Made by a program: the position numbers and the translations under genes. Positions 11,578 through 49,777 of a DNA stretch of 56,715 nt are shown piece by piece; within the stretch, counting starts at the first letter, position 1; each line of letters begins with the position of its first letter. This DNA comes from a virus (Duplodnaviria > Heunggongvirae > Uroviricota > Caudoviricetes): the IMG/VR virus record IMGVR_UViG_2622736468_000005; one strand, 5' to 3'. The notes under the pieces were generated by a model, which saw only the letters and a program-made list of their open reading frames with translations, had not been told where the DNA came from and did not search any database.

Positions 11578-12275
11578 TTACTGCGAAAGTTTGTTAATGG
11601 AAAGGAAACCGCCAAAATTAGCCACCATGCCGCGCATCTCACACCCGCGCATGCACTTGCTGCATCTGTCCTTACGGATATCCGTGGTGGGGTTGTCGAA
11701 CTCATCCGCCACCGCAGGACCGTTATACCCGCATTCATCTCCCCGGTAATCCCACATACAGGTGTTCGCCAGCATGATGCGACCAGGAAACAGCGCCCCG
11801 TCCGTCTCGGTCGGTGTCGCCAGCACAAACGAGGCCGTCATGGCCGTCAGCTCTGACATCTGCTCCACCACCCAGCGGTCGCTCAGCTCCTGCTCCGGGT
11901 CTGCCTCCGGATTGCCCGCAACGAAATTCACCGCATCCAGAAAACGCCCATACACCCGACGGCGGACCACCGTGGCCCCACCAGACTCTGCAGGTCTTCC
12001 GCCATCCCGGTGACCAGACCGAACAGATTGGACACCGTCAGCAACGGTCTGGCACTGCTGCCCTTCCCGCTCATCTGAAAACCGCTGCCGTCAATCGGGT
12101 ATGCCTGATATTGCCGCCCCTGCCAGGTGACCGGCTCCCCTTTTTCATTCAGCTCATTACAGAAAAAATACCGCTCACCGCCCTGCACCGTCAGGTCAAT
12201 TTCCCAGAGCACCACCCGCGGTGACTGCTCTGATTTAACCGACTCGTTCAGACTTTCTTCGTGGATCTCCTGCAT
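11578..12275 (-). pseudogene. L: tail tip protein L, interrupted by a 1-bp frameshift (track ORFs 11928..12275 and 11578..11970)
   Basis: N-terminal ORF matches lambda gpL up to ...GMAEDLQSLVG, C-terminal ORF matches the rest (VRRRVYGRFLDAVNF...FGGFLSINKLSQ); frames differ by one base at a C4 run at 11976..11979. Confidence 0.8.
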
Positions 12276-12284
12276 AAACTTCCA

Positions 12285-12473
12285 CCCATAAAAAAGGGGC
12301 GCAATGCGCCCCGAACAAAAAAGTTCAATTAAAAATCGAAAGCAATGAAGGTAATAAAATGAAAATTAAATCGGCTAATTGCCGTTTGCAGTGACCGGTG
12401 AAAACTATACTTTCACCGATACAGACCATCTGTGAGGGCAGATGGTCTGTATTTGTTCACTCACCAGTTATCA
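12285..12473 (-). ncRNA. candidate 3'UTR-derived sRNA (IpeX-like) downstream of prophage porin gene
   Basis: About 190-nt untranslated segment after porin stop containing a 12-bp perfect hairpin (acagaccatctg...cagatggtctgt) and ending in a strong intrinsic terminator (ggggcgca-ttg-cgcccc + T-run). Confidence 0.3.
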
Positions 12474-13610
12474 TCAGAACTGATAAGTCATACCAACGGC
12501 AACGATATTATCCGTTGCAACACCTGCATCCTGGGTAAACTGACTTTCATCAATCAGATTGATTTTATAATCAACATAGGTGGACATATTTTTATTAAAA
12601 TAATATGTTGTACCCACATCAATATATTTAACCAGATCCTGATTGCCATAGTTTTTACCACCGACAATTATATCCTGAGCACGAGACTGCAGGAACGCCA
12701 GAGATGGACGCAAACCGAAATCAAACTGATACTGTAATACCGCTTCAAAGTTCTGGGCTTTATCTGCCACCCCTTTGTCGCCAAAGGTCGTCATATTCTG
12801 AGTCTCAGAATATATTGTCGCCAGATAAATGTTGTTGGCATCATATTTAAGCCCGGTGCCCCACATCTCAGCGTGTTTACCTTTTGCAACACTGCCGGAA
12901 TCAACAACTGTTTGAGTACCGTTTACTGTTTGCGTACCATTCAGGCCTTTCACCTGATTGTTGGTACGGTCTGCGTTAGTATATGCAGCCACGATACCAA
13001 AACCTTCATATTCATAACTGGCAGAGAAACCATAACCATCACCATTAGCTTCCTGAAGGTCATCACGTTCATTCTTGCCCTGATACTGAGCTGCAAAATT
13101 CAGGCCATCAACAAGTCCAAAGAAATCAGTATTACGGTAAGTCGCCACACCAGAAGTACGGGCAGTCATGAAGTTATCGGTCTGAGTCCAGCCATCACCA
13201 CCAAACTCTGGTAATACGTCGGTATAAGCACCAACATCATACGCAATACCATAGTTACGACCATAATCAATGCTGCCAAAGTCACCGAACTTCAGACCTG
13301 CAAACGCCAGACGAGTCTTATTACCCGCAGCACCGTCTGATTCAGTTTTATTACCAGAGAACTGATATTCCCACTGACCAAAACCGGTCAGTTGATCATT
13401 AATCTGAGTTTCACCTTTAAAGCCCAGACGTGCATATGTCCGATCACCATCATTTCCCTTATCGCTGGAGAAATAATGCAGTGCCGTTACACGTCCATAC
13501 AGATCAAGCTTATTGCTATCTTTGTTATATACTTCCGCAGCCTGCGCACCAGCTGCAAAAATCACAGCCGCAGCCACGGCTGAAAGTGCCACTGTCATTT
13601 TTTTCATCAT
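12474..13610 (-). CDS. general bacterial porin of the OmpC/OmpF/PhoE family (prophage moron)
   Basis: 378-aa ORF with signal peptide ([12 protein letters not shown]), porin signature stretches ([23 protein letters not shown]-terminal ...VAVGMTYQF); AT-rich flanks; inserted between tail genes L and M. Confidence 0.85.
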
Positions 13611-13699
13611 TTGTTCCTTATTTTAATTGAACTATTCATGAATTGGGCTGTCATGAACGCCAGTTAAAATATTTTACTACAAATTCTGAATTCAATTCA

Positions 13700-13735
13700 T
13701 TAAATGCAACAAAATGTAAACAAGAGACAAGTTTC
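13700..13735 (-). promoter_or_regulatory. putative OmpR-binding box in porin promoter region
   Basis: Minus-strand sequence TGAAACTTGTCTCTTGTTTACATTTTGTTGCATTT resembles OmpR sites of ompC/ompF (GTTTACATTTTG, TGAAAC). Confidence 0.35.
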
Positions 13736-13812
13736 ACACTTTCTGTTAAGACGACAAAAAATAATTTTGCATGAAACAATAAAGATTAATTTATAATACA
13801 ATTCTTGGAAAT

Positions 13813-14154
13813 CTATGAGATTACCTGCTCAATCGTGCAACTGAAATCACTGTACCGGGCATTATCCGTGACACTCCACTCACGGCACACAACCCTCACC
13901 GTTCGGTTATGTTTCGGCGGTCGCCACAAAAAGGCACGGTAACCACCATGCCACGATAAAAACTCTTCCAGCCATCGCCGGGTCGCCTCATCCGTCACCC
14001 GGAACACCGCCTGAAACGTCTTCAGTCGGGCATTAAGTCCCGTCGGGCGGCGCTGTTCATAACCGTCACCAAACCGTACCCTCGCCACCGACGGTTTCTC
14101 ACTCACCTGCATCCCTTCACGCGGGACCAGATGCAGCGTTTTTATCTCAGCCAC
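13813..14154 (-). CDS. M: minor tail protein M
   Basis: 113-aa ORF with VRFGDGYEQR...GLNA motif as in lambda gpM; position between H and L. Confidence 0.8.
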   Translation of the reverse strand: MAEIKTLHLVPREGMQVSEKPSVARVRFGDGYEQRRPTGLNARLKTFQAVFRVTDEATRRWLEEFLSWHGGYRAFLWRPPKHNRTVRVVCREWSVTDNARYSDFSCTIEQVIS

Positions 14155-17100
14155 TCAGCATTCCTCCGTCACGTCGCATGGACAGCATCACCGCCTGCAC
14201 CCGCTGGTCAATCAGTTGCACAAGGCTGCCCGCAGCTTCCGGCCCTATCTGGCCATTAGTCCCGTCATTCTGAATGGCGATATGGTAGACCGGGGAATAC
14301 ACCAGACCCGCACTGCCGTTCATACTGCCCACCGCTCGCACACCCAGCGAGCCATCCGCCGCCCGGGTCAGGGGCATAATGGCTTCAGGACCGGCCTCCC
14401 CCATAAGTCCCGCCCCTTTTGCAAAGGCAAAGTACGTGGGCGTATCCACAATACTGTTGCTGTACGCACTCAGGTTTGCCGAGGTAAACACGCCGCCTTT
14501 TGCATTGGCCACCGCCCCGCCCAACCAGTCACCAATGCTGCCGAGAAATCCTCCTGCACCGGACATACTATTTGCCGCCGTCCTGATCCCGTTGACAATC
14601 GCGGCATTCATAAGAACTTTTGATATTTCCTGCAGCACTGATGAGGCCCAGCTGCGCCATTCCACTTTATTCCCGTTCAGCACCTCCGTGATGTTATTCA
14701 CCATCCCTGAGATACCCTCCGTCGCAAGTTGTGCTGCCTGTGAGGCGTAATCGGACGCATTATCCACCCAGTTACTGAACCCCTCCTGCAGCCCTTTCTG
14801 CCAGTCCGCACGCTGCACATCCGATTCGGCATAAAAGGCTGCCTGGTCCTTAAGGCGTTCGCTCAGATACTGCGCGTTCTGTGCCCGTGCCTGTCTGTAA
14901 AAATCCTCACTGATATCCCCGGTCTGATACTGAGACTGAAGGTCCGCATCCTTCTGGCGGAAGCTGTCGCGGATCTGCTGCAACTCCCGCATGCGTTCCC
15001 TGGCTCGTTCTCCCTGCCCGTACCCCAGCAGTTCGGCTTCATTTGATGCACGCGCAGCCACATTATCATTCTTCAGGGTCTCTTCCCGGTACCGTAACTG
15101 CTCCCGGATTTTTTGCTGGTCAATCAGGGCCGCATTGCGCAGCAGTTCCTGCTTCTGTATCTCCGTCAGGGTTTTCAGTTCGCCCTGCGCTGTCTGGTAC
15201 TTCAGCTTCGCCAGTTCTGTATTCTGACCCGCCAGTGCCAGTTGCTCTTTCTGCTGCTTCAGTAGCCGGGAAAAACTGTCTTCCGCTTTTTCCGTCTCTG
15301 ATTTTCCACCCCGGGATTTGGGTTTATTCGCCTCGTTATTGCGCCAGGCTTCCAGGGCATTACTGATATAACGTTGTCTCGCCTCCTGATACGGATCACC
15401 CACAAAACCGAGGTCATCCGCCGCATACCCCAGCCGGGCACGCTCTTTTTCTTCCCCTTTCAGTCTGGACAGGGCCAGCTCACGCTCTGTTTTTGTCAGG
15501 GCACTCTGCTGTTTATCATCCAGAGTGGCCTGTGGCAGCCGTAACGGCACATTCACCAGTCCCTGCCGCTGCTGAAGCAGTTCATTACCCTGCCCCAGCA
15601 GACGGTTGAATTCCGTATGCTGACCGTTCATAACCAGCATGGACTGGTACACCTTATTCTGCTCTGCCGCCTGCTGACGAATTAACGCCACACGACGGTC
15701 TTCCAGCCCGGCAAGCACATCCTGAATGGACTGCGCTTTTTCCTGCATCTGTGCCAGACGGGACTGCTCAACGGCAAGCTGCTCTGTTGCCTGAGCAAGC
15801 CCTTCCGTTACGGTCTTCACCGAGGTCAGATGGTTTATCATGAATCCGTCACCGGTCGTCCAGCCCGGGTTCGCCAGAACATACTGATATCCTGCGATTT
15901 TTTCCTGCAGGGATTTCACCCGACTGGCCTGTTCATCAATCAGCCGGTTCTGCTCTGTCAGCGCCGCCCGTGTTCGTCCTTCATTATCTGAGGCTTCAGG
16001 CAAAGACATTGACGGCGTTTTATGCGCGATTTCATCTATCGTCAGTGCATACTGGCGCGCAGACTCCCTGGCCTGCTCCTGATTCTGGTACAGCGTGTAC
16101 CATGCTGCAGCCCCCAGCATCACCAGTCCGGGTACGCCACCAACCAGCCCCAGCGCACCGCTCATCAGACGTGAGCCCACCGCCGTTGTACTGTTCAGCG
16201 CATTCTGGGCGGCGCTTCTGGCAGCAATATTTCTGTTCAGGCGTTCCTGTGTGGCCGCCAGACGGGCCTCTGCAGCAATCTGCATCTCCGTCCCGCGGGC
16301 TGCCGCCACGGCCTGCTGAGCACGGTACACGGCTGCCCTTGCCCGCGCCGTGGCAATCTGCGTTCCCCTGAACTGTGCTTCCGCCAGTGCAACTTCATTA
16401 CGTGCAGCCGTCACAAGTCCTGCCGTGGCAGACATCGCTCCGGAGGCCATATTGCCAAAGTACCGGGCCACCCCGACGGCAACCAGCGCACCCACAGCTG
16501 TTGCCACATTATCAATCTGTCCGGCAACACCGTTCAGCATGCCGGAGAGCGTTTTTGTCACCCCGCTGGCCTCATTCGCACCGCCCACCCAGGCCATAAA
16601 GGCGTTTTCCACCTTTGTGATCCCGTCAGAGACCGTTTCTGGCATGGCGGCATATTCATCACGCAATGTCCCCAGCTGGCTGATTAACGCGGGCACGACT
16701 TTATCCGCCGTCAGTTGACCATCGTCCGCCATCGCCTTCAGATCTTTACGGGCCACGCCCATGCCTGCAGCCAGTGCACGAATGATCCGGTCACCACTTT
16801 CATTGACCGAATTAAATTCCTCACCGCGCAACACACCCTGTGCCAGCGCCTGGCTGAACTGGGTGATCACCGAACCCGCCTCAGCCGTACTGGCACCGGA
16901 GATTTTCAGCCCCGTGGAAATGGCCTCCGTCACCTTCAGTACATCACCGGCACTGTAACCATATTCACGCATCGAGGCAGCCGAACGGGCAAACAGGGCC
17001 GCATTATCCGAAAAAGCGGTACCTGTCCGCTGACTGATATCCATCAGCACTTTCTGTGATGACGAAAATTCATCGGATGACTGTGATGCCTGTTTCAGAC

Positions 17101-17389
17101 GGGCATTCACGGAACTCCACTCATCAGCCAGTGAAATCAGGTGTCCGGTGGCAAAGGCACCGGCAAATGCGCCAGCCATTCCGACAGCCGAAGCGCGGAT
17201 TTCCGTCAACTGGCTGTTCAGTTCTGCCAGGGCACGTCGCTGCTCCCGGGCTGCCGCAGCGGCCTGACGCCCGCCATTCTGCAGGGTCCGGTAATATTCA
17301 CTGCCCATACGGGAAGCCCGCTGGATCTCCGACTGGAATGACTGTGAATTTGCCGAAATTTTGATAATCAGTTCACGTAACGTCGCCAT
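14147..17389 (-). CDS. H: tail tape measure protein H
   Basis: 1080-aa ORF, coiled-coil rich, C-terminus ...NDGTNGQIGPEAA...RRDGGMLSG matches lambda gpH end. Confidence 0.85.
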   Translation of the reverse strand: MATLRELIIKISANSQSFQSEIQRASRMGSEYYRTLQNGGRQAAAAAREQRRALAELNSQLTEIRASAVGMAGAFAGAFATGHLISLADEWSSVNARLKQASQSSDEFSSSQKVLMDISQRTGTAFSDNAALFARSAASMREYGYSAGDVLKVTEAISTGLKISGASTAEAGSVITQFSQALAQGVLRGEEFNSVNESGDRIIRALAAGMGVARKDLKAMADDGQLTADKVVPALISQLGTLRDEYAAMPETVSDGITKVENAFMAWVGGANEASGVTKTLSGMLNGVAGQIDNVATAVGALVAVGVARYFGNMASGAMSATAGLVTAARNEVALAEAQFRGTQIATARARAAVYRAQQAVAAARGTEMQIAAEARLAATQERLNRNIAARSAAQNALNSTTAVGSRLMSGALGLVGGVPGLVMLGAAAWYTLYQNQEQARESARQYALTIDEIAHKTPSMSLPEASDNEGRTRAALTEQNRLIDEQASRVKSLQEKIAGYQYVLANPGWTTGDGFMINHLTSVKTVTEGLAQATEQLAVEQSRLAQMQEKAQSIQDVLAGLEDRRVALIRQQAAEQNKVYQSMLVMNGQHTEFNRLLGQGNELLQQRQGLVNVPLRLPQATLDDKQQSALTKTERELALSRLKGEEKERARLGYAADDLGFVGDPYQEARQRYISNALEAWRNNEANKPKSRGGKSETEKAEDSFSRLLKQQKEQLALAGQNTELAKLKYQTAQGELKTLTEIQKQELLRNAALIDQQKIREQLRYREETLKNDNVAARASNEAELLGYGQGERARERMRELQQIRDSFRQKDADLQSQYQTGDISEDFYRQARAQNAQYLSERLKDQAAFYAESDVQRADWQKGLQEGFSNWVDNASDYASQAAQLATEGISGMVNNITEVLNGNKVEWRSWASSVLQEISKVLMNAAIVNGIRTAANSMSGAGGFLGSIGDWLGGAVANAKGGVFTSANLSAYSNSIVDTPTYFAFAKGAGLMGEAGPEAIMPLTRAADGSLGVRAVGSMNGSAGLVYSPVYHIAIQNDGTNGQIGPEAAGSLVQLIDQRVQAVMLSMRRDGGMLSG

Positions 17390-17436
17390 TCACCTTTCTC
17401 CGGGCGTAAAAAAACCGCCTCAGCGGTTCTCATCAT

Positions 17437-17750
17437 TCATGACTGTGCTGCAAAGCTCAGCGCGTCTTCCAGCGCCGCAAACGGATCCACCTCCGGCTTA
17501 TCCTCATCCTCGCCCCAGCAGAGCATGGCGTCCTTCAGTGCAACATTCATCCCCTGTGCCCCGAAAACCGCTTTCACGATCTGTGCATTACGGATATCCC
17601 GCGCTCATCACCCAGCGGGGACACCCTGTCAAACTCCATCCACATCATCGCCTCGCTCGCACTCAGGCTGTGCCGCAGTTCGGATAAGGTGCGCCCCAGA
17701 CGGAGCGCAAGTCGCATCAGAAAGCGAATTTCCGGGCGGGCTACTTTTTT
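17437..17750 (-). CDS. T: tail assembly chaperone T portion of the G-T fusion (reached by -1 frameshift), itself interrupted by an extra 1-bp frameshift near 17598..17600
   Basis: Reading in -1 frame from the slippery site gives KKVARPEIRFLMRLALRLGRTLSELRHSLSASEAMMWMEFDRVSPLGDERG then a premature stop at 17574..17576; a third frame continues QIVKAVFGAQGMNVALKDAMLCWGEDEDKPEVDPFAALEDALSFAAQS-stop. Confidence 0.55.
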
Positions 17751-18115
17751 CTGGCCGACTCTGCATCAGCGATCAGTTCCAGTGCCTGACGCAGCAACCG
17801 GGCATGTACCGGACCATAGACGGCCAGCACCTGCTCACGGTCGTCCGGAGTGAACACCCGTTGCAGGTCAGTATCACACAGGACATCGCAGAACAGCGTC
17901 ACATCCGCTTCCAGGTTACGGCGGGTTTTCGCCACCACCGACAGGGTATCGTCATCCTCTCCATCACCATTGAGCACTTCCTGCCACAGATACCAGGCCT
18001 CTGCCGAAGGCTCCCGCAGCACCACGCTGACATTTCCCCATTCCGGCACCTTCACCGTTTTATGACGGAACCCTGACAGTCTGGCCAGCGCCAGTGTTTT
18101 CAGATCTTTTGCCAT
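17741..18115 (-). CDS. G: tail assembly chaperone G
   Basis: 124-aa ORF between V and H ending ...AESARKK-stop with slippery heptamer at its 3' end. Confidence 0.7.
   Translation of the reverse strand: MAKDLKTLALARLSGFRHKTVKVPEWGNVSVVLREPSAEAWYLWQEVLNGDGEDDDTLSVVAKTRRNLEADVTLFCDVLCDTDLQRVFTPDDREQVLAVYGPVHARLLRQALELIADAESARKK
17744..17750 (-). promoter_or_regulatory. programmed -1 ribosomal frameshift site (A AAA AAG) for the G-T fusion
   Basis: Minus-strand AGA AAA AAG TAG at end of G; classic X XXY YYZ heptamer; -1 frame is open and encodes a gpT-like sequence. Confidence 0.65.
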
Positions 18116-18120
18116 AAGCC

Positions 18121-18837
18121 TTATCCGCCCGCACCATTAACCGTTACTGTACACGCATCAGAGGTAATGCTCTGCGGCTGTTCTGCAGAATCCGTTACCT
18201 CGCAGGTATAAGCCCCCTTATCACCTGACTGCGTATTGGCTTTACTGAAAGTGTCAGTAGTCTGTCCCTCTACCGGCTGACCATCCTTCTTCCAGGCGTG
18301 TTTATAAGGCGGCGTTCCCCCGTTGACACTGACTGACATTGTCAGCAGCGCACCGGTATTCACGGTAAGTGTCTTCTCCAGATTTTTCACAAACGCCAGC
18401 GGTACCACATAGGACACCGGTTTACCCTTCAGGCGAAGTGAAAACGTTGCAGCCACCACGCCGTTGGTACCGGATGACCAGGTGTGCTGACGCACTTCCG
18501 CCAGGAACTTAAAGCCCTTACCGGACGGAAACTGCACCTTAAACGCATACACCGTGTCATTGTCATAGGCATCACGCAGGGCGTTCTGGGCCTGATTCAG
18601 ATAAAAATTACCCGACATGGAAATCTCGGACGACGCCCCCAGACCGTTGATGTTCTCCTGCTCTGTGGAGCAGAGCGTGGTCACATCAATATCCTGTTTC
18701 TGCCCGGCGGTGAACTGGACTTCCTTGATGGTGCAGTCCAGGCGCAGATATTCCGCCTTATCCATAGTTTCAGCAGTCGCCGGGGCAGATGAAATCATCA
18801 CCTGCGTCAGCTGTGAGCGTTCATACAAAGCAGACAT
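18121..18837 (-). CDS. V: major tail protein with C-terminal Ig-like domain (gpV-like)
   Basis: 238-aa ORF immediately upstream of G; C-terminal ~80 aa Ig-like (GAYTCEVTDSAEQP) as in many major tail proteins. Confidence 0.7.
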   Translation of the reverse strand: MSALYERSQLTQVMISSAPATAETMDKAEYLRLDCTIKEVQFTAGQKQDIDVTTLCSTEQENINGLGASSEISMSGNFYLNQAQNALRDAYDNDTVYAFKVQFPSGKGFKFLAEVRQHTWSSGTNGVVAATFSLRLKGKPVSYVVPLAFVKNLEKTLTVNTGALLTMSVSVNGGTPPYKHAWKKDGQPVEGQTTDTFSKANTQSGDKGAYTCEVTDSAEQPQSITSDACTVTVNGAGG

Positions 18838-20038: not shown

Positions 20039-20047
20039 TCCCCCTCC

Positions 20048-20374
20048 TCATAACACCGTCGGACAACGCAAATCGTAAATCAGCACGGAAACAGAAAACG
20101 GCAGCTCCCCCTGAATCAGTTCTTCCCGCTCCGCAAGATCCGGATTCCGGTACAGCATCCCGGTCAGTCGCATGGCAGCCCCCTTCATCCGGGTTAATGC
20201 CTCGCCCGGGATCAGTTCACCGTCCTCACGAATCACTTTATCCCGGCTGCCCTGAATGTAGGCCAGCAGCACGGCGGTAGCCTGACGAACCTTGTCCATC
20301 AGCATGTCATCATCCGCGTCATGGTCGACACGCAGATGTGCCTTGATCTCTTCCAGTGTCAGTAATGCCGTCAT
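20048..20374 (-). CDS. head-tail connector protein (gp6-like)
   Basis: 108-aa ORF immediately after portal; stop of portal overlaps its start. Confidence 0.45.
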   Translation of the reverse strand: MTALLTLEEIKAHLRVDHDADDDMLMDKVRQATAVLLAYIQGSRDKVIREDGELIPGEALTRMKGAAMRLTGMLYRNPDLAEREELIQGELPFSVSVLIYDLRCPTVL

Positions 20375-34829: not shown

Positions 34830-34906
34830 TGGACCGCCATCGGGGACTTGAACCCCGCGCAGCCAGCTTCGAAGGCTGGCGCTCTATCCCGATGAGCTAA
34901 TGGCGG
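34830..34906 (-). tRNA. tRNA-Arg (anticodon read as TCG)
   Basis: 77-nt cloverleaf on minus strand: acceptor CCGCCAT/ATGGCGG, D-arm GCTCATCGGGATAGAGC, anticodon loop CTTCGAA, T-arm CGGGGTTCAAGTCCCCG, 3' TCCA. Confidence 0.7.
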
Positions 34907-34913
34907 TATGTGA

Positions 34914-34989
34914 TGGTGGCCCTTGCTGGATTTGAACCAGCGACCTGGCGATTATGAGTCGCTCGCTCTCACCACTGAGCTAAAGGGCC
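34914..34989 (-). tRNA. tRNA-Ile2 (anticodon CAT, ileX/ileZ-like) or tRNA-Met
   Basis: 76-nt minus-strand sequence GGCCCTTTAGCTCAGTGGTGAGAGCGAGCGACTCATAATCGCCAGGTCGCTGGTTCAAATCCAGCAAGGGCCACCA; 7-bp acceptor stem, CTCATAA loop. Confidence 0.8.
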
Positions 34990-37855: not shown

Positions 37856-38132
37856 CAGTCACCTCTTTTACCCAAGCACGCCAGTTGCAAAGGCGTGATC
37901 AAGAAAACGAAAAATTAAATCAACCTGAGAACCATGCTTTTCTTCGAACGCCAGAGGATCCGCATGAAGCTCGTTGTGATGCTCCCGACACAGCGGTAGC
38001 GTGAAAATATCGTGAGATTTTGTCCCCATTCCGCCCTGACCATGACCAATCAGGTGATGGGGATCGTCGGCTGGCTTATGAACCGCCCCGGGAATCCTGG
38101 AGACTAAACTTCCTGAGAAAGAGGTAAACAGG

Positions 38133-38459
38133 ATGACTAAAAATACTCGTTTTTCCCCCGAAGTCCGTCAACGGGCAGTCCGTATGGTTCTGGAAAGTCA
38201 GAGCGAATATGACTCACAATGGGCGACAATTTGTTCCATTGCTCCAAAGATTGGCTGTACGCCGGAGACTCTGCGTGTCTGGGTTCGCCAGCATGAGCGG
38301 GATACCGGGGGCGGTGATGGAGGGCTCACCACCGCTGAACGTCAGCGTCTGAAAGAGCTGGAGCGTGAAAATCGTGAACTGCGCCGCAGTAACGATATCC
38401 TTCGCCAGGCTTCCGCTTATTTTGCGAAGGCGGAGTTCGACCGCCTCTGGAAAAAATGA
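38133..38459 (+). CDS. IS629 transposase OrfA (HTH)
   Basis: 108-aa [25 protein letters not shown]...; slippery A AAA AAT at its end. Confidence 0.85.
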
Positions 38460-39346
38460 TGCCACTGCTGGATAAGCTGCGTGAGCAGTACGGGGTCGGA
38501 CCGCTATGCAGCGAACTGCATATTGCCCCGTCAACGTATTACCACTGTCAGCAACAGCGACATCATCCGGATAAACGCAGTGCCCGTGCGCAGCGCGATG
38601 ACTGGCTGAAGAAAGAGATACAGCGCGTATACGATGAAAATCACAAGGTATACGGTGTGCGTAAAGTCTGGCGTCAGTTGTTACGGGAAGGTATCAGAGT
38701 GGCCAGATGCACTGTGGCACGTCTCATGGCGGTTATGGGACTTGCCGGTGTTCTCCGGGGTAAAAAGGTCCGTACGACCATCAGCCGGAAAGCCGTTGCC
38801 GCAGGCGACCGCGTAAACCGTCAGTTCGTGGCAGAACGACCTGACCAGCTGTGGGTGGCTGATTTTACTTACGTCAGCACATGGCAGGGCTTCGTCTATG
38901 TGGCGTTCATCATTGATGTGTTTGCCGGATACATCGTGGGGTGGCGGGTCTCATCGTCCATGGAAACGACATTCGTGCTGGATGCACTGGAGCAGGCGTT
39001 ATGGGCCCGTCGACCGTCCGGCACGGTCCATCACAGTGATAAAGGTTCTCAGTATGTATCGCTGGCCTACACACAGCGGCTTAAGGAAGCCGGATTACTG
39101 GCATCAACAGGAAGTACAGGCGACTCGTATGACAACGCGATGGCGGAGAGCATCAATGGTCTTTACAAAGCGGAGGTAATACACCGTAAGAGCTGGAAAA
39201 ACCGTGCAGAAGTGGAACTGGCCACACTCACGTGGGTGGACTGGTATAACAATCGACGATTGCTGGAAAGGCTGGGCCATACTCCTCCGGCAGAAGCAGA
39301 AAAAGCTTATTATGCTTCCATCGGAAACGATGATCTGGCAGCCTGA
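38456..39346 (+). CDS. IS629 transposase OrfB (DDE integrase domain)
   Basis: 296-aa ORF overlapping orfA in -1 frame; DDE-type catalytic core. Confidence 0.85.
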
Positions 39347-40229
39347 GTTCACAGATAAAACACTCTCCAGGAAACCCGGGGCGGTTCACTTACCACAACA
39401 CGCACACGGCTGTGTCTTCACCCAGCGTGTGTATTTCTCGTTAACCCAGCGGCGACGTTTAGGTCGTTTCATGAAAGATTCCGGAGACTCAGGATCAACG
39501 GCAATGCTGACCACCGTCTCTTCCTGTGGCGGGTTTTGCTGGTGGGCGTGAGGCAGCGGCGCAAGATTTTTTGTGCGCTGCTTCAGTATGCTGGTGGCGG
39601 TCTGCTCTCCCGGTACGATGTCGCTTTCACGGTACATTGAGCGGATTTTTTCCGCACGCAACCCCAGCGAACGACGTAATACCGCTTCCGGTAGCGCGTC
39701 CGCCACCTGATTGCGGACCGCCCACCAGGATAATTCAGCCAGCGATAATTCCCGTTCCTGCGAGCCATTCATTGCATGGCGTATGACGTCAATCATCCAT
39801 GCAGACAGGTTTTGGTGAGCAAGTTGCCCGAGTGATTCGGAGGTCTGGTCGCGCAGCTGGTTGTCGCAGTGCCAGCACAACACCATTGCGCCGGTACCAT
39901 AACGGTGAATGACGGTTTCACTGTGGTGATAATCGCCGTGTGGCCACTGGCAGGATTTAACATGGCGCAGTAACCAATCAGACAATGCGCCAGCGCCACC
40001 AGCAGCACGAATCACTCGTTCGTCGCTGAAAAATGGCAGTAATGATTTATCCTCCGCCAGCGGCTGGCGAACGGCAGGAACGACCCCGGACGGCAGATTA
40101 CGCATGCTTTTCGGTTCCGGCTCCACCAGTACCCGGGTATTGTGGAATACCGGCATGGATTCACGGCCCGGCTTAACGATCACCAGCCCGAGTTCCGGTA
40201 CCAGAACAGGTCGAAGTAATACCCGCACG

Positions 40230-40735: not shown

Positions 40736-40865
40736 CAACAGAATCCTTCCAGATAAATAGCACTCCCCTGTTCGGGGTCCATCCCTCTTCTCCCTGCGCG
40801 CTACTTAAGTATTTTTGATTCTATTCTGGCACCGTCCAAAACTTCAAACACGTTGAAAATAAAAA

Positions 40866-42701: not shown

Positions 42702-42722
42702 CAAAAACCCGCCGAAGCGGGT
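42702..42722 (-). terminator. intrinsic terminator after hokD; same hairpin sequence as 40866..40886
   Basis: Minus-strand aacccgcttcggcgggttttt; identical stem-loop to the downstream copy. Confidence 0.55.
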
Positions 42723-42791
42723 TAAGTGCGGGTGCGTTGAGGATGCCTGGCACATCAGAGGTGGCGGGAGATTACTCCCCCGCCGGGTCTC

Positions 42792-42947
42792 TTACTCCTC
42801 AGGTTCGTAAGCTGTGAAGACAGCGACCTCCGTCTGGCCGGTTCGGATTCGTACCTCGCAGAGGTCTTTCCTCGTTACCAGTGCCGTCACAATGACGGTT
42901 AAACAGATGACGATCAGGGCGATTAGCATCGCCTTTTGCTGCTTCAT
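42792..42947 (-). CDS. hokD: Hok/Gef-family small membrane toxin (HokD/RelF-like)
   Basis: 51-aa ORF MKQQKAMLIALIVICLTVIVTALVTRKDLCEVRIRTGQTEVAVFTAYEPEE with AAGGAG RBS; track ORF 42792..43004 carries an in-frame N-terminal extension. Confidence 0.8.
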   Translation of the reverse strand: MKQQKAMLIALIVICLTVIVTALVTRKDLCEVRIRTGQTEVAVFTAYEPEE

Positions 42948-43238
42948 AGCCTGCTTCTCCTTGCCTTTCGGCACGTAAGAGGCTAACCTACGTGTGTAGA
43001 GCATAGATATGGCCTCAGATTAATGTTAAGCGTCTTGCCGGACGCGTAATGTTAACTGGGGCTTTTCTCTATCTGCCTTTTGGTGTTCATGCCTGAGACA
43101 GATAGCCTCAAGCACCCGCTGCAATTCTACTTAACTCTCCTTTTCCCGCAAACCGTTTTTATCCCCAGCGGCAAATCGAATACACCACCAGCGCCACCGC
43201 CATCGCAATTCCTACCGTTGTTAATGCTTCAGGCCAGG

Positions 43239-43583
43239 TCATCGTAAAATATCCTCCACGCTTATCAGTCCGTTCCGCTCCAGATAACTCATCGCCTTAT
43301 CCGGTAATTTGCAGTCTGGCTTCGCTTTCCTCAGTTGCCAGGTTAACTGCTTTACCAGCATGGTTAACTCATCGACCAGACGCTGATATCCCACTGGTTT
43401 GTATTCATGCAATTTACCGGCTGGCTCTGCTGCCAGCGATACCAGTGCGATTTCCAGAACAGCAATATCCATCTTATATGTGCGGATGATGTCATGGTCG
43501 ATTGTGCCCGGTATGCACAGTCTCTGTGCTTCAATAGTCTCCTCTGCGTGAGCTATTAACTGCTCTCTGGTAAAAGTCGTCAT
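43239..43583 (-). CDS. hypothetical protein (nin-region)
   Basis: 114-aa ORF; N-terminus MTTFTREQ... is paralogous to next small ORF. Confidence 0.4.
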
Positions 43584-43750
43584 GCCGTAGCCCCTTCTTG
43601 ATATTTTTCAAACCAGAACACAACCGGCTCTGCTTCCAGCGATGCCAGCGCAATCCGTGCCAGTTCCATTTGTTCACCACGGGTAAGCCCGTTTTCAAGC
43701 GGGTTTTTAATGAACAATTCAATACGTTCTTTGGTAATAGTGGTCATGTG
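43583..43750 (-). CDS. hypothetical small protein (55 aa)
   Basis: [62 protein letters not shown]; shares MTT-T...IA.ASLEAEP pattern with 43239..43583. Confidence 0.3.
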
Positions 43751-43757
43751 TTACTCC

Positions 43758-44021
43758 TTAACCCGCAGTGCTTTCAACTGATGAGGGGAACAAAATCTTT
43801 TCATCAAACCCTGCATTCATATCATGGACAGCAACACACCAATCCATTGACGAACGATTATCAAGAGCCTCCATGATTTCATCCATGCGGCGCAGGTCAT
43901 ACAGGTAAATGCTTTTATCGCCAATGGTGTAAAAACCAATTTTTTTCGGTGATGGACAGCGATCAAGAACGTCCTGTAATTCGTTCAACCATGCCTGTTC
44001 TTTTTTTGTCAAAGTTGCCAT
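43758..44021 (-). CDS. hypothetical protein
   Basis: 87 aa from internal Met (MATLTKKEQAWLNELQD...) of track ORF 43758..44111; AAGGA RBS. Confidence 0.35.
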   Translation of the reverse strand: MATLTKKEQAWLNELQDVLDRCPSPKKIGFYTIGDKSIYLYDLRRMDEIMEALDNRSSMDWCVAVHDMNAGFDEKILFPSSVESTAG

Positions 44022-44022
44022 A

Positions 44023-44241
44023 TCAGTTTTCCTTATACGGATTAATTTTATTGTGCAGTGTGTTGAACGGAGCCCATACCACGTCGTTATACAATTCAAT
44101 AACTGGCTCAATTATTTTTCCGATTCCCCATACCAGAATTAACGGGGATATCGGTATCATCAACACGATAAACAGAATGAGAAACAAAAATTCTGTCGCT
44201 CTACTTTTTCGCGGATATTCTTTTCTGAATAATGTAGGCAC
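44023..44241 (-). CDS. hypothetical small membrane protein
   Basis: 72-aa ORF with one strongly hydrophobic segment (FLFLILFIVLMIPISPLILVWGIG). Confidence 0.35.
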   Translation of the reverse strand: MPTLFRKEYPRKSRATEFLFLILFIVLMIPISPLILVWGIGKIIEPVIELYNDVVWAPFNTLHNKINPYKEN

Positions 44242-44242
44242 A

Positions 44243-44458
44243 TCACTCTCCTTTGTTGCTCCTCAAAATTTTATGCCCTGGCGCAAAAGCACGCGTTTTG
44301 TCGGCACTTATTCGCCACCCATCTTTACGTGCCTCTTTTGCACAGCCAGCCCATGACGTACCGATATACTCACCAAAATCTGGCGACTGATATTTGCCAT
44401 CCGTACACTGGCGGCAATCACAATAGAGATGCATGGTATAACTTGCGGCAATACCCAT
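44243..44458 (-). CDS. hypothetical Cys-rich small protein
   Basis: 71-aa ORF, CDCRQCTDG motif. Confidence 0.3.
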   Translation of the reverse strand: MGIAASYTMHLYCDCRQCTDGKYQSPDFGEYIGTSWAGCAKEARKDGWRISADKTRAFAPGHKILRSNKGE

Positions 44459-44818
44459 TCAGCCTCCTTTGATGCCCGTGTTTACAACCAGGCAGGCCTC
44501 CTTGAGTACCCAGTCAATAGCGTCTTTCCATGCTCCGGTTTCAACTGGCGGATCCTCACGCCGTACCTGTTCATAAAAGCGCACAGCTTTAACCAGTCCT
44601 TCTGATGTCACCGAAGCTGGCGGGGCCGTGAATAACGCCTGAATTTCATAGTTTGGTCTGTCGTTACAATCCTCTTTTGTCGGGACATATTTCCAGTCAC
44701 CAACCCACTGCTTCCCCTGAAAGTCTGTAACGCCTTTTTTCACGTAGCGATATCGCCATGCCACTGGTTTTGCCTGCCCTACCTTTTCATGCCCTTCCTG
44801 ATAATTAATCTCGCTCAT
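44459..44818 (-). CDS. hypothetical protein
   Basis: 119-aa ORF, translationally coupled to neighbours. Confidence 0.35.
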   Translation of the reverse strand: MSEINYQEGHEKVGQAKPVAWRYRYVKKGVTDFQGKQWVGDWKYVPTKEDCNDRPNYEIQALFTAPPASVTSEGLVKAVRFYEQVRREDPPVETGAWKDAIDWVLKEACLVVNTGIKGG

Positions 44819-45261
44819 TCATCGCCCCACTCATCACAATATGCTTCGACCGGTGTTTTCCCTGCTTCATAATCATCACGCCATGCTTCAGCATCAGCGG
44901 CACTTCCACCGCGTAACTCTGCATAATCCATTAACAGTTCATGCCATTCTTCAAAACTGGCGTTATATTTAGTTGAACCAAAATCAGCCATTTTGTTCTT
45001 CCTCTTCGTCTTTTATTTCGTGGTATGAGTAATTGCAGTAGTTAAAGAAAATATCTTTAGCTTCATCCTGTATTTCATCTGGTGTTGCATCATCATCCAC
45101 TTCGAATTCATCCTCGAAATCTCCACCGGCTATTCCCGTTTCAATAATTATTTTGAATTTTCGCATTTCACTACCGCCCTTTCGGACGGCCTCCTGATGT
45201 TCTGAGGGTGCAGAAATCCCTCCGGTTAAGGATTTGATTTTATTTACAGTGCTAAATTTAA

Positions 45262-45618
45262 TTATTCAGTTCTGGATTTTGTCGCCCTGCATATCCGCGC
45301 TTTCGCGTTACGCTCAATCTGAATTAACTTTTCTATATTTTTCCGCCTTTCCTGTTCCTCCTGGCGCAATAGCCTTACATCATCTGCCAGTCTGGTTTCT
45401 CTTTTCGCCACAGAGAGCATCCAGTCAAACGGCTCCACAACTGCACCGCAGATTTTACAGCGGACCTGACGCTCTTTTTCGTCAACCCGAACAGAGGCGT
45501 GATGACAATATGGTCTTTCCGATGGCTCATAAAGAAAATTAACCTGATTACGAGGGTCATCCTCTTTTACCGGAAATAAAACGATATTGCTTAACTCATC
45601 CTCTGGTTTTATTTCCAT
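45262..45618 (-). CDS. hypothetical protein with zinc-ribbon-like Cys/His pattern
   Basis: 118-aa ORF (CHH...CKIC). Confidence 0.3.
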   Translation of the reverse strand: MEIKPEDELSNIVLFPVKEDDPRNQVNFLYEPSERPYCHHASVRVDEKERQVRCKICGAVVEPFDWMLSVAKRETRLADDVRLLRQEEQERRKNIEKLIQIERNAKARICRATKSRTE

Positions 45619-46057
45619 GCTCCTCTCCTTTGATGCGAATGCCAGCGACGCGTAATGCGTGTTCTAAGTCAATCAGGTAAAGCCAACTGCCATTTTCTTT
45701 AGGTATCATGACATGTCGCTCATCTGCATTTATCGGGTGTCCATATCGAAGGTCGTAGCGAGTCGGTAATTGAACTTCCCGCGCTTCCAGTTCAGCAATA
45801 CGCTTGCTCCCATCAGAGATAACGCCTTCGTAATACTCACGCTGCTCTTTGAGTTGTGATTTTGCTTCTTCCAGTCCATCCAGCAAATCAGCGATAATAT
45901 CCGCTTCCCGATGACGGATGTGACGCTTAAACGCAGCAAGAGCCGCATCACAATCCCGTTCAGCATTTGGGCTGTCCGGGATAGCCTGATACCACGCCAG
46001 CGTCGACTGATAGTTTTGTGCTGCCTCACGAAGCGCCTCATAGTTAACCTCTCTCAT
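45596..46057 (-). CDS. hypothetical protein
   Basis: 153-aa ORF. Confidence 0.35.
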   Translation of the reverse strand: MREVNYEALREAAQNYQSTLAWYQAIPDSPNAERDCDAALAAFKRHIRHREADIIADLLDGLEEAKSQLKEQREYYEGVISDGSKRIAELEAREVQLPTRYDLRYGHPINADERHVMIPKENGSWLYLIDLEHALRVAGIRIKGEEHGNKTRG

Positions 46058-46419
46058 TGAGCCACCTCCTGATAAATCACTGCATGCCCCAGTTTCTCCG
46101 CCAGTGCCAGCTCTGCCTTAGCGCCCGCTGACCGCTGCCAGCCATTCAGCATGTAAATCGCATCCACACAACGAATCATTGCCATGCAAATATCCATGTA
46201 GTGCGGCTGTGTCAGCCCGTCCGGAAGTACTGCCGGGTTTAAGACGGTATGCCCTTCCCGTTTCAGTTCCTCTTCCGCCTTGTGAAACGCCTCACGGTTG
46301 AAATTTTCATATCCCGTCATTGGACCGGCAATATAAACTCTGACCCTCACTCCATCACCTCCTGAAAGTTTCCCCGATAGAACGCCAGCACACGCTGCAT
46401 AACTTCGCTCTGGCGGCAC
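46054..46419 (-). CDS. DUF4406-like (nucleoside 2-deoxyribosyltransferase-like) protein; start probably downstream of track start
   Basis: VRVRVYIAGPMTGYENFNREAF motif; 73-bp overlap with upstream ORF suggests shorter true N-terminus. Confidence 0.4.
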   Translation of the reverse strand: MPPERSYAACAGVLSGKLSGGDGVRVRVYIAGPMTGYENFNREAFHKAEEELKREGHTVLNPAVLPDGLTQPHYMDICMAMIRCVDAIYMLNGWQRSAGAKAELALAEKLGHAVIYQEVAQ

Positions 46420-46754
46420 TCACGACAAATTATGTTCTGCCGTCTGTTGTAACGACGTATTTCTCCGTCAGGTAACTTTCGAATCAGTGTCGGGTCAGCA
46501 GCCTTCTCCGGTGTCTTACGCCATACGCGATACGCCTGCTCTGATGGAAATACCCCGCAACCAGAGAGCCAGACATCACCACTGGCCGCAAGCGCACCAG
46601 ATAAACGACGAATAGCGGTCTTACTGACACCCGTTTTATCTGCCAGTTGTCGAAAAGTTTCTCGTCCGCTCAGGCGCACGAATTCCACAATGCGCGCCTT
46701 CACTTCTTCCCGCTCTTCTGGTGTAAATACTTTTGCCATAAGCGCCTCCGGCAA
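46347..46754 (-). CDS. hypothetical protein with HTH-like segment
   Basis: 135-aa ORF. Confidence 0.3.
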   Translation of the reverse strand: MPEALMAKVFTPEEREEVKARIVEFVRLSGRETFRQLADKTGVSKTAIRRLSGALAASGDVWLSGCGVFPSEQAYRVWRKTPEKAADPTLIRKLPDGEIRRYNRRQNIICRECRQSEVMQRVLAFYRGNFQEVME

Positions 46755-47543
46755 TCACTTTTCCGATACAACACGGCGGGAAGAATCAGTAATCTGTCGA
46801 ACAATATCCCGGTGCTTGTTCACCTCCCGCAGCGCGGCGCAGACTCGCTCCCACTTCTGAACATCACTTTTCGCCCTGCGCAGCGCCAGGTTTGCCCTGC
46901 GAAGGGACGGAAAAATCAGCTCATCTGCTTGCGTTTCGGTAAACGATGGCAACGGCTGCACAATGTCCGCCACAGTTTCTGTTTTAATTTCTTCCTGTGT
47001 TGCGGCTTCCCGGACTGGTAACGCAGCACCTGCTGGCTGAGGAAAGGCCTTACCATCACTTTCCGTTACCAGCGCGGCTTTCGGCTCTGCTGGTAAATTA
47101 TCGCCCGGCATGCAGTAACGAAATTTATCGTTCTGATTAACGCGTGCCAGCCGCCCCGTTGCGGTTACCACCGCCAGCGTGGAGGCAACCTTGCGAGTAC
47201 TGACGCCGAACTTACCCGCCAGTTCCTCACACGTTTTAGCACCATCCTGACCGATAAACTCAATCATCATGTCTGCGGTAACTTTTTGTTCGACCTCCCC
47301 GGTCAGCATATCCTGTGCTTCAGATTTTACTGGCCGCTCTTCGGTTACCCGGGATTCACCTTCGCCAGCCAGAAACCAGGTGTGACCAGTTTTATCAACG
47401 ACGCCATTTCTTTTGAGTTCCCACAGCTCGTTGAGAACCTCTTCACGACTGATATCAAGTCGCGCGGCCAGTTCTACCGATGTGGCTTTTCCCATTGCTT
47501 TCAGTGCGTCAAATACGGTTTCCATTAAAATTTCCTCCGACAA
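46755..47543 (-). CDS. hypothetical protein with winged-helix-like repeats
   Basis: 262-aa ORF. Confidence 0.35.
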
Positions 47544-47558
47544 AATCGTTTCTCAGAT

Positions 47559-48224
47559 TCAAATAAAACCAGCTGCCTTCCGGCGTTCGTATTCCTGTTT
47601 CAGCCGTTCAATTGGCGTTGGCCCTTGCGGGTGTTTCGCCCCTTCCAGTTGTCGTCGCACTGGCGGAACACTCATCCCGTTACCAACATGCTTTGCCCAT
47701 TTCGTCAGTTGCCGTTCCGCAAGTCGTTTTAACTCACCCTGCGTCATCTGGCGCTCAATCCCTCTGGTACGCATTTCGAGGCAGATGTGGTACAGCACAG
47801 GCTGAGGCCACGGATATTTGTCGCTTCCGTCATATCGCCAGGACTCATCACGCCAGCGGCGGTACTCCTCCATCACAGCATCCACCGTCAGGCCAAATGG
47901 ATTGGCCCCGCTTTCTGAAATCAGCGCCACAAACTCAGCCAGGTCCGGAGGCCATGTTTCACCCGCCCGGCAGCGGTCCATGCACTGGCGGCAGACCTGT
48001 CGGATTTGCTGCTCAGTCATCGCGCCAATCTGTGCAATCCAGAGCTTCGAAGGTGCGGCCCCGTTCTTCTGGGTCCAGCGGTTCGAATAAACCTCCCCCA
48101 TGAGTTCCCACAGCTTCCAGACCGTTTCCGTCGCTGATAAATCCGTTTTCACGTTCCCACTGCTCACGTGCTGCCCGAATTTCCTGAACTGCCCGTGATG
48201 CGGTGCCACCTGGTGCTGCTGCAT
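47559..48224 (-). CDS. replication protein P-like (helicase loader); start uncertain
   Basis: 221-aa ORF; C-terminal half resembles lambda P (…YPWPQPVLYHICLEMR…, C-terminal basic tail); 211-bp overlap with upstream ORF. Confidence 0.55.
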   Translation of the reverse strand: MQQHQVAPHHGQFRKFGQHVSSGNVKTDLSATETVWKLWELMGEVYSNRWTQKNGAAPSKLWIAQIGAMTEQQIRQVCRQCMDRCRAGETWPPDLAEFVALISESGANPFGLTVDAVMEEYRRWRDESWRYDGSDKYPWPQPVLYHICLEMRTRGIERQMTQGELKRLAERQLTKWAKHVGNGMSVPPVRRQLEGAKHPQGPTPIERLKQEYERRKAAGFI

Positions 48225-49028
48225 GGTTTACCCCCTTGCTGACTGGCTTAACCTGCGCCCTGACGTGATTTACGTGACGGGCGAATTTCTGCTCCCACTG
48301 AACCTGCGTGAAAACTTTCCCCTCCGCTGCCCAGTAGTCCCGGAAAGCGGCAAGTTCAGCAGGTGTAAATTCCGGCTCCGGCAAAGCCATCCCCCACAAC
48401 GCAGCCCGTCGTCGAAAATCCGGCGACGGATGCCAGTCATCGACCATCGGAAATTTCCCGATGGGTTCGCTCAGTCCATCCAGGGATGCAGGTTCTGCTG
48501 CCTGCAACGGCGTACCACTCGACTCACTGGTCGGAGCACTCTCGCGCACGTGCGCGTTATGTGTGGGGTTTAATTCTTTATCTGTATCTTTATCTGTCGT
48601 GACTCGTCGTGACACCCCTCATTCTGTTTTCGTAATTTTTCCCTCTCGCGCTGCGCTCTCTTGCGCTCTGCCGGGGATTTCGCGGTTTGTGAAACGTTGC
48701 CATTGTCCTCTTTCAGTACCTGGCGTTTTTCCCATCCGGTGATTAAATCTCCATCAAGTACCCGCCCCTGCATTGCCTGTAAAATTGAATCAATTACTTC
48801 TTCCGTCACATCAAGCGCACTTGCTAAATCTTCCGTCGTGACATCAATGTGACCACGTAGTGACACGCCGTGACATGTCGTGACATTTCGTGACGCGCTC
48901 ACCAGAAGGTGGATATACACTGCCATCACTGTTGCAATTGGCTGCCCTGACACCCTGGCAATTGTTCGCCACTTAGGGTCATTTGGCATGTCATGCCATA
49001 ATCTGAGCCAGGCGTTAGCCATACTCAC
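48013..49028 (-). CDS. replication initiator (O-like) carrying origin iterons; two track ORFs probably one gene separated by a 1-bp homopolymer frameshift at 48615..48618
   Basis: N-terminal ORF (48570..49028) ends ...KQNEGCHDESRQIKIQIKN-stop; adding one G in the G4 run gives ...KQNEGVSRRVTTDKDTDKELNP... continuous with 48013..48615 (which starts on GTG right after a stop). Confidence 0.45.
48849..48898. repeat. iterons: five ~10-bp direct repeats TGACAnnnCG (origin of replication inside O-like gene)
   Basis: gtgaccacgtag tgacacgccg tgacatgtcg tgacatttcg tgacgcgctc at 10-bp period; two more copies at ~48595..48615. Confidence 0.6.
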
Positions 49029-49093
49029 CTCTTCTGATACCGAATCTTTTTACTCACAAATTGCCGGAAGTGATCCGGTATGAATATTGCGAG

Positions 49094-49519
49094 TCAATGC
49101 ACAGCCACAATATTTCCTGCAGGGCCACCACGATTCATCTGGTTGAAACCAGCGATCGCCACTGCGACAAAATCATCAGCGTCTCTCACCAGTCGTTCCC
49201 GCGTCTCCACCAGCTCCCGAAAATAAGCTGAACTGTGGCTGCGCATTCGGGCCACCAGCAGAGGCGGCATTGCTTTTTCGATCGCTGGTAACAACGCCTG
49301 AATTTTTTTAACCGCATCAGGAGTGTCTTTCTCCACCCAGCGGAAAATTTTCTGGGTATTGCGAGCCAGGGCTTCCGGATGGCTGTCGTCATATAATTCC
49401 GGGAACGTCATACCAAGCTCAAAATAAGCCCGGGTTATTTCAGCTGCCGGAACTTTTTCACCGTCCGGATGCGCCCAGGCATTCATCGCCATGCGGATGT
49501 GCTCATGCCTGATTTTCAT
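49094..49519 (-). CDS. YdaT-like / phage CII-like regulatory protein
   Basis: 141-aa ORF MKIRHEHIRMAMNAWAHPDGEKVP... immediately downstream of cro-like gene. Confidence 0.55.
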   Translation of the reverse strand: MKIRHEHIRMAMNAWAHPDGEKVPAAEITRAYFELGMTFPELYDDSHPEALARNTQKIFRWVEKDTPDAVKKIQALLPAIEKAMPPLLVARMRSHSSAYFRELVETRERLVRDADDFVAVAIAGFNQMNRGGPAGNIVAVH

Positions 49520-49777
49520 GAATCAACTCCGATGCATTTGGTGTGTTAGCCTTGAATCCAACAGGTAAGCCGTCGGTTGGATTCGGGTAAATATCAGGCC
49601 GGAGTTCATGAGGTGTAACCTCGAAATTCGTTACTTCAGCAACACGTAATGCTTTTTCAGGGCTGAATCTTTCATAGCCCCCAGCACTCGACTTACATGC
49701 ACCTGAGATAAACCCGTTAGCTTCCCAAACTGTAGCTGGGTGATATGTTTCTCTTTTAAATAGTCTCTTAAGTTCAT
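49503..49777 (-). CDS. Cro-like / YdaS-like HTH protein, apparently frameshifted at a C5 run at 49678..49682
   Basis: Frame 1: MNLRDYLKEKHITQLQFGKLTGLSQVHVSRVLG...; adding one G gives ...VLGGYERFSPEKALRVAEVTNFEVTPHELRPDIYP... with the expected HTH-then-LRPD layout; divergent from repressor gene. Confidence 0.45.

Follow-up and report, generated by a model that had tools for sequence, protein, structure and literature searches.

Single-base deletions in G/C runs of a lambdoid Escherichia coli prophage are probably consensus errors of the source assembly

Four frameshifted genes in a lambdoid prophage of Escherichia coli, encoding the tail proteins L and T, the large terminase (terL) and a cro-like YdaS protein, together with single-base losses at two noncoding sites, are best explained as consensus errors of the source assembly and not as mutations of the organism. 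On the sequence comparisons described below, this reading is given a probability of roughly 0.88. The window, meaning the whole stretch of DNA analyzed (56,715 nt), lies entirely inside the prophage. Two other lesions in the window, a 31-bp deletion in an O-like replication gene and an insertion sequence (IS) within a DUF968 gene, are of a different kind and are considered separately.

The window was compared with a sister assembly, GCA_901482365.1, in which four loci (L006, L023, L042, and L007) together span window positions 1 to 56715. This assembly carries the label Streptococcus pneumoniae and is mislabelled. Only eight differences were found in 56.7 kb, the two sequences being otherwise identical. 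Six are 1-bp deletions in the window, all located in G/C runs with a full length of 4 to 7 bases, four of them in coding sequence (L, T, terL, and the YdaS gene) and two in noncoding sequence (27664-69 and 40765-68). The remaining differences are a single substitution and, at an IS junction, a 7-bp indel; these 7 bp are present in the window and missing from GCA_901482365.1, and the gap is probably an error of the sister assembly itself. At all six deletion sites the longer allele is carried by GCA_901482365.1 and by nearly all related E. coli genomes, with L (232 aa), terL (553 aa), T, and YdaS (91 aa) all intact in the sister assembly. As the four frameshifts are shared by neither the sister assembly nor the relatives, their distribution is not that of inherited lesions. 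The coordinates of these and other features are listed in Table 1.

Table 1. Run-length differences, repeats, and other features of the prophage window
Feature	Position	Strand	Comparison or basis
C4 run (G4 on the coding strand), minor tail gene L	11976..11979	-	C5 in relatives
C3 run, tail assembly gene T, at T codon 40	17598..17600	-	C4 in relatives and GCA_901482365.1
Intact A-AAA-AAG heptamer, 3' end of gene G	17744..17750	-	Sequence and three-frame translation
G3 run (C3 on the coding strand), large terminase gene	26564..26566	-	G4 in closely matching reference and GCA_901482365.1
C6 run, intergenic between HNH endonuclease gene and terS	27664..27669	.	C7 in GCA_901482365.1
Two small membrane-protein ORFs (43 aa, then about 40 aa), lysis cassette	29299..29549	-	
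1,310-bp IS3-family insertion sequence (ORFs of 108 and 296 aa), breaks DUF968 gene	38079..39388	+	
C4 run, noncoding or remnant region	40765..40768	.	One base fewer than C5
17-bp repeat TGTCACGACGAGTCACG (coding strand), sole remaining copy, O-like (DnaT-like, replisome organizer) gene	48598..48614	-	
C5 run, cro-like YdaS helix-turn-helix gene	49678..49682	-	C6 in relatives and GCA_901482365.1

[quoted passage not shown] A short homopolymer is indeed present at each of the six positions, and the reference protein aligns in two frames at five. Both the deletions and the error explanation held for L, T, terL, and the cro-like gene, which are intact in an independent assembly, but not for the O-like gene or for a site in the lysis cassette.

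The short alleles at the coding sites were rare or absent among complete genomes. In L, where the window has C4 and both the closest relatives and GCA_901482365.1 have C5, the frame break leaves two pieces of L, one of 115 aa and the other of about 130 aa. No carrier of this allele appeared among 2,501 matching complete-genome records, and the truncated L fragment was absent among 15 billion proteins; the exact intact 232-aa protein of the sister assembly was present in 11 contigs. For T, the C3 allele of the window occurred in a single record of 1,202. Programmed ribosomal frameshifting of the G/GT type was considered as an explanation of the T lesion and ruled out, with the heptamer at 17744-17750, the lesion at 17598-17600, and the T gene of relatives uninterrupted. 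By analogy with G/GT of phage lambda, the heptamer itself would be where a programmed -1 frameshift joins G to T. The 1-bp deletion in terL had been assigned to a T run (26556-26560); its existence was confirmed, but alignment to a closely matching reference placed the gap in the G run at 26564-26566. The lesion divides terL into products of 101 and 452 aa, and the window allele was seen in 0 of 1,196 complete-genome records, while the exact 553-aa protein of GCA_901482365.1 was present in at least 1,000 contigs. The G3 allele was also found in one unrelated read-archive contig (L024).

At the YdaS site, the C5 run cuts the 91-aa protein to 48 aa and occurs in 2 of 181 complete-genome records. 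Among Logan (read-archive) contigs that carry the O-gene deletion, YdaS was intact in all four that cover the site (L008-L010 and L012). Two assemblies of strain NCTC86 differ at this run, CP019778.1 having C5 and LR217818.1 having C6. Approximately 24 further contigs, belonging to other strains and in some cases apparently short-read drafts, also had the C5 form; thus, this run can truly vary. The two noncoding deletions were absent from the original list. Relatives carry C7 or C8 at 27664-27669, and C5 was found at 40765-40768 in GCA_901482365.1, in five related prophages (L003, L004, L005, L036, and L038), and in the drafts L039 and L043.

The direction and composition of the six events are uniform, as all are deletions and all lie in G/C runs. 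A census of runs of at least 4 bases in the window counted 640 of A/T and 301 of G/C, giving P of about 0.001 for six of six events in G/C runs if they were random among runs. Indels make up 10% of mutations in wild-type E. coli and 30% in mismatch-repair-deficient strains. The observed spectrum, six 1-bp indels to one substitution, has a P of about 6e-6 at an indel share of 10% and of about 0.004 at 30%. Because this ratio reverses the natural spectrum, it points to sequencing error and not to natural divergence. The proposed mechanism is that G/C homopolymers with a true length of 4 to 7 were each called one base short, an error that would have arisen at the consensus step of the assembly.

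Other run-length differences were examined and set aside. A C run in the portal gene (21606) was considered as a possible insertion error, but most records (747 of 1,063) share the intact C6 allele of the window, as does the sister assembly; C5 is seen in two close relatives, which carry a frameshift annotation. Differences at 5620, 18890, 27511, 50373, and 52049 were attributed to natural variation, the same lengths being found in the sister assembly or in other relatives.

To identify the source assembly, proteins of the window were used as queries. Exact matches to the J, tape-measure, and tail-fiber proteins were found only in AMB54611/613/618 (E. coli) and in the VTQ326xx series. The AMB protein numbering omits exactly L and T, which fits annotation of both as pseudogenes. 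A 617-aa form of the esterase ORF is on record, and the DNA methyltransferase, being too common, matched only unrelated prophages. Among RefSeq complete E. coli genomes, none was a 100% match to the window. Judged by accession series and chromosome size, the AMB546xx proteins presumably belong to CP014197, of strain MRE600. CP014197 is the MRE600 genome (PMC12851939), and the MRE600 chromosome was assembled from one SMRT cell with P5-C3 chemistry, HGAP 2.0, and Quiver at 184x, without short reads (PMC4825418). The source is most probably this PacBio RS II (P5-C3, HGAP2/Quiver) assembly of E. coli MRE600, unpolished with short reads; the likely platform, PacBio RS II with Quiver, is thus none of the three first suggested, pyrosequencing, Ion Torrent, and nanopore (PMC4825418). 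In PacBio RS II consensus sequences, most errors have been described as losses of a single G/C base from homopolymers of 4 to 6 nt, even at high coverage (PMC8574707), and a Quiver-polished genome of 2.9 Mb contained 561 such deletions (PMC4888979). DNA methylation was rejected as a cause, as inspection of the sequence contexts found that the GATC, CCWGG, and RCCGGY motifs reported for MRE600 overlap none of the six runs.

Genuine defects were nevertheless found at two loci. The frame break in the O-like gene had been read as a 1-bp homopolymer loss at 48615..48618, and larger deletions had been said to be lacking; neither statement stands, as the break comes from the deletion of 31 bp between two direct repeats of 17 bp, with the loss of iteron-like repeats. 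The same deletion is common to GCA_901482365.1 and five Logan assemblies from different runs. The IS3-family insertion in DUF968 is flanked by a 4-bp CTTA duplication at the target and is also present in GCA_901482365.1, its junction being backed by the independent contigs L036 and L037. As both are common to independent assemblies of the lineage, they are classed as real: the O-like lesion reads as a genuine, repeat-mediated deletion, and on these alignments the prophage is judged truly defective at the O-like gene and at DUF968. The lysis cassette is a different matter. The supposed deletion at 29421..29424 is no indel, the window being identical to 577 complete genomes over 81 bp, and the two ORFs overlap through a stop/start arrangement (GGGG-TGA / GTG) at 29418-29424. 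All full-length phage matches are likewise in two frames, and the upstream 43-aa ORF has the same GGGG-TGA end in a distant Stx phage. By comparison across these phages, the site reads as a normal overlapping stop/start between two lysis-cassette genes, without a lesion.

Among the other explanations for the six short runs, the one that survives best, although it is judged unlikely, is that they are true mutations of the sequenced laboratory stock, with L, T, terL, and the cro-like gene truly broken. Selection on prophage genes is relaxed, this prophage already carries the two real defects, and real bacterial 1-bp indels also favor homopolymers. The YdaS C5 and terL G3 alleles are, moreover, found in contigs of other strains. 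However, six indels to one substitution in otherwise identical DNA would be very improbable as real divergence, the events share one direction and one base composition, and the same density across the genome would amount to approximately 500 frameshifting events, too many to be believed for stocks of a single strain. A documented artefact of the platform fits the pattern instead. Likewise unlikely is the related idea that the short runs are real differences between two laboratory lineages, arising from a burst of slippage, such as might follow a transient mismatch-repair defect, that inactivated four genes. Were that so, natural instability of the YdaS C run would make it a switch within a cro-like regulator.

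It is very unlikely that the runs are hypermutable tracts acting as on/off switches by slipped-strand mispairing, with the two assemblies caught in different phases. Both YdaS forms, C6 and C5, are seen in several lineages, even between the two NCTC86 assemblies, but YdaS is the only site at which both lengths recur, the short alleles of L, terL, and T being confined to 0 of 2,501, 0 of 1,196, and 1 of 1,202 records, respectively. Furthermore, two of the six sites are noncoding, every switch would have gone in the same direction, and the tracts are only 4 to 7 bases long; to our knowledge, phase-variable tracts are far longer than this. That the window is correct and GCA_901482365.1 contains six single-base insertion errors is scarcely credible, for even though the latter bears a wrong label and is probably in error at the IS junction, its alleles keep the frames open and recur in independent E. 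coli genomes, hundreds to thousands of them, whereas the window alleles are absent from those genomes or nearly so.

These results are mainly a warning about data quality and hold no new biology. Six deletions per 56.7 kb would predict approximately 500 single-base G/C-run deletions over the 4.83-Mb assembly. Should the source be MRE600, a reference strain of ribosome and tRNA research, hundreds of genes may be falsely split or annotated as pseudogenes, and the assembly needs polishing before proteomics, variant calling, or any count of prophage integrity relies on it. More generally, where a prophage comes from a long-read-only assembly, a frameshift in a homopolymer calls for a second data source before it is counted as decay. 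In the present prophage, the defects that count as genuine are the IS insertion and the 31-bp loss within the replication initiator gene.

Compared with E. coli lambdoid prophages in true decay, the window is similar in its O-gene deletion and its IS3-family insertion, both of which are found in independent assemblies, but differs in its four homopolymer frameshifts, which are found in neither GCA_901482365.1 nor relatives. The G and T genes resemble the G/GT system of phage lambda, being adjacent and having the A-AAA-AAG heptamer just before the G stop codon; unlike in that system, the T lesion of the window lies approximately 145 nt downstream of the heptamer, inside T, and is not in relatives. 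The remaining comparison is with the residual errors of PacBio RS II assemblies made with HGAP/Quiver. The window departs from these in one run with a true length of 7, and its platform is one that we infer. It is like them in that the changes are single-base deletions confined to homopolymers, mostly of G/C, that leave genes split, and such errors persist above 100x at a density of about one per 10 kb, similar to the six in 56.7 kb of the window (PMC8574707, PMC4888979).

The lambdoid Escherichia coli prophage in the window has its integrase at the right end, and its genes for head, tail, lysis, and replication functions are on the minus strand; the nearest complete genomes share 97 to 99.5% identity with it, and no 100% match was found among RefSeq complete genomes, which therefore do not include the source assembly. 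Reference proteins were aligned to the window for frame changes, which were seen at L, T, terL, the O-like replisome organizer gene, and the cro-like gene YdaS, and DNA alignments then gave the exact lesions. Of the six single-base homopolymer losses in the original prediction, those in L, T, terL, and YdaS were found, the terL loss at another run: gap placement was ambiguous against the first, locally divergent reference, and the closer NCCP15648 put it in a G run rather than the T run at 26556-60 originally named. The O-like gene instead carries a 31-bp deletion, and 29421-24 no indel. Nor was the list complete, as comparison with GCA_901482365.1, an assembly of an essentially identical strain (the sister assembly), added the runs at 27664-69 and 40765-68.

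Differences between the window and its relatives or the sister assembly
Position	Gene or region	Window	Compared sequences	Method
11976-79	L	C4	relatives and sister assembly C5	DNA alignment
17598-600	T	C3	relatives and sister assembly C4	DNA alignment
26564-66	terL	G3	NCCP15648 and sister assembly G4	DNA alignment
49678-82	YdaS	C5	relatives and sister assembly C6	DNA alignment
27664-69	intergenic	C6	sister assembly C7	
40765-68	non-coding	C4	sister assembly C5	
39390	IS junction	TTACCAC	7 bp absent in sister assembly	
52480	substitution	T	sister assembly G	

Using 81-bp queries against complete E. coli genomes, for which identity of at least 99% requires a perfect match, the window allele was found in 0 of 2,501 records for L, 1 of 1,202 for T, 0 of 1,196 for terL, and 2 of 181 for YdaS. 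Exact matches to the intact proteins are present in 11 contigs for L and at least 1,000 for terL, whereas neither truncated fragment, of L or of T, occurs among approximately 15 billion proteins. The terL G3 allele was seen in one unrelated read-archive contig, with 5 mismatches to the window in 1,059 bp. Because approximately 24 contigs of other strains also carry C5 in YdaS and two assemblies of NCTC86 disagree (C5 in CP019778.1 versus C6 in LR217818.1; window 49640-49720), either errors recur at this run or its length is genuinely unstable. CP117959.1 (B-2207), a chromosome of nearly equal length, has C5 there too. The slippery heptamer expected of a phage lambda-type G/GT arrangement, A-AAA-AAG, is unbroken at 17744-50, separate from the T lesion, which lies approximately 145 nt deeper into T.

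Four loci of the sister assembly (L006, L023, L042, and L007) tile the entire window, and all differences amount to six 1-bp deletions in the window, one 7-bp indel, and one substitution, with no single-base insertion in the window over its whole length. The sister assembly has unbroken reading frames for the 232-aa L, the 553-aa terL, the 91-aa YdaS, and T. It is itself imperfect, as its missing 7 bp (window 39389-39396; L007/L042) are present in IS-free relatives and two independent contigs; their absence beside the IS reflects an error in GCA_901482365.1 or else a genuine microdeletion there. A 3.5-Mb contig of this assembly (CABEEG010000004.1), which carries an E. coli prophage and trp and ompW loci, was deposited as Streptococcus pneumoniae, apparently a mislabelled or mixed-up sample.

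Six indels to one substitution is the reverse of the natural mutation spectrum, and extrapolating the window's density genome-wide gives approximately 500 events separating two copies of one strain. Every one of the six is a deletion within a G/C run, even though runs of at least 4 nt are more often A/T than G/C (640 to 301; chance of six out of six, approximately 0.001). The longer sister alleles, the G/C-deletion bias, and the indel excess support sequencing error over pseudogenization, as had been proposed; judged from these comparisons, the losses at the true homopolymer sites are probably systematic errors (probability roughly 0.88). The pattern is the documented error signature of PacBio RS II consensus sequences, in which single-base G/C deletions in homopolymers of 4 to 6 nt persist despite high coverage (PMC8574707); 561 such deletions were reported in a Quiver-polished 2.9-Mb genome (PMC4888979).

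The window's exact J, tape-measure, and tail-fiber proteins occur in only two public records, AMB54611/613/618 (E. coli) and VTQ326xx (GCA_901482365.1). The AMB numbering (613, J; 618, tape measure; 625, portal) skips L and T, which is what their annotation as pseudogenes would produce, and the window therefore derives from the AMB record. We take the AMB546xx proteins to belong to CP014197. That accession is the genome of E. coli MRE600 (PMC12851939), whose 4.83-Mb chromosome was assembled without short reads from one SMRT cell (P5-C3, HGAP 2.0, Quiver, 184x) (PMC4825418), and the MRE600 assembly is the likely source of the window. A second, culture-collection assembly of MRE600 is plausible because the strain is also held as NCTC 8164. 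The homopolymer lesions hold no biological novelty; they matter as a caution about the quality of what is likely a widely used reference genome.

The lesion in the O-like gene is a repeat-mediated deletion: TGTCACGACGAGTCACG occurs twice, 14 bp apart, in relatives, and one copy is left in the window, with 31 bp missing. As 31 is 30 + 1, the deletion mimics a -1 shift. It removes iteron-like repeats, splits the initiator gene, and is common to the sister assembly and five Logan read-archive assemblies, each built from a different sequencing run; four of these five cover YdaS, and all four have it intact. Additionally, a 1,310-bp IS3-family element with target duplication CTTA breaks the DUF968 gene. 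The prophage is thus probably defective, but owing to this deletion and insertion and not to the homopolymer lesions.

The 861-aa portal-like open reading frame (ORF) (20371-22956) is intact in the window, with C6 at 21606-21611; TOE17 and HCP4S3_I4, the complete genomes nearest to it, carry C5, and their annotations mark a frameshift. Because C6 predominates (747 of 1,063 records), homopolymer frameshifts here in other public assemblies may represent either errors or true variation. Within the C-terminal half of the ORF, a 162-bp unit is repeated in tandem three to four times (20825-21430; copies approximately 88 to 91% alike) and encodes repeated VPRDGRDYDP...ADGKSLTPDDVRPMLEQMVKEAV segments. 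An OmpC-like porin cargo gene (12474-13610) lies inside the tail cluster between M and L; TOE17 and HCP4S3_I4 carry it and NCCP15648 does not. At the left prophage end, a class I SAM-dependent methyltransferase gene (1296-1964) lies between direct repeats of 216 bp (920-1135 and 1970-2184; 90.7% alike). Downstream of a DNA methyltransferase gene are two phage-borne tRNA genes (34830-34989), one for Arg (anticodon tcg) and one with a CAT anticodon, called Met in the window and annotated Ile in a relative. At 43198, the number of in-frame 6-bp CGCCAT units is one fewer than in 700462 and NCCP15648 and equal to that in E. coli 042 and the sister assembly.

The proposed disruption of a lysis gene at 29421-24 was rejected, as DNA alignment revealed no indel there relative to any relative and the surrounding 81 bp are identical in 577 complete genomes. 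When the hypothetical fused 83-aa protein was compared with 50,697 phage records, 12 matched it over its full length, isolated-phage records among them, and every one did so in two frames, none in a single frame. The site comprises two small membrane-protein genes, probably translationally coupled: the upstream 43-aa ORF ends in GLLG-TGA, and this TGA overlaps the GTG opening the next small ORF, forming a GTGA junction. The homolog of the 43-aa ORF in P13374, a distant Stx phage, is ORF53, which ends in GLVG-TGA with the same GGGG-TGA and is followed directly by Rz.
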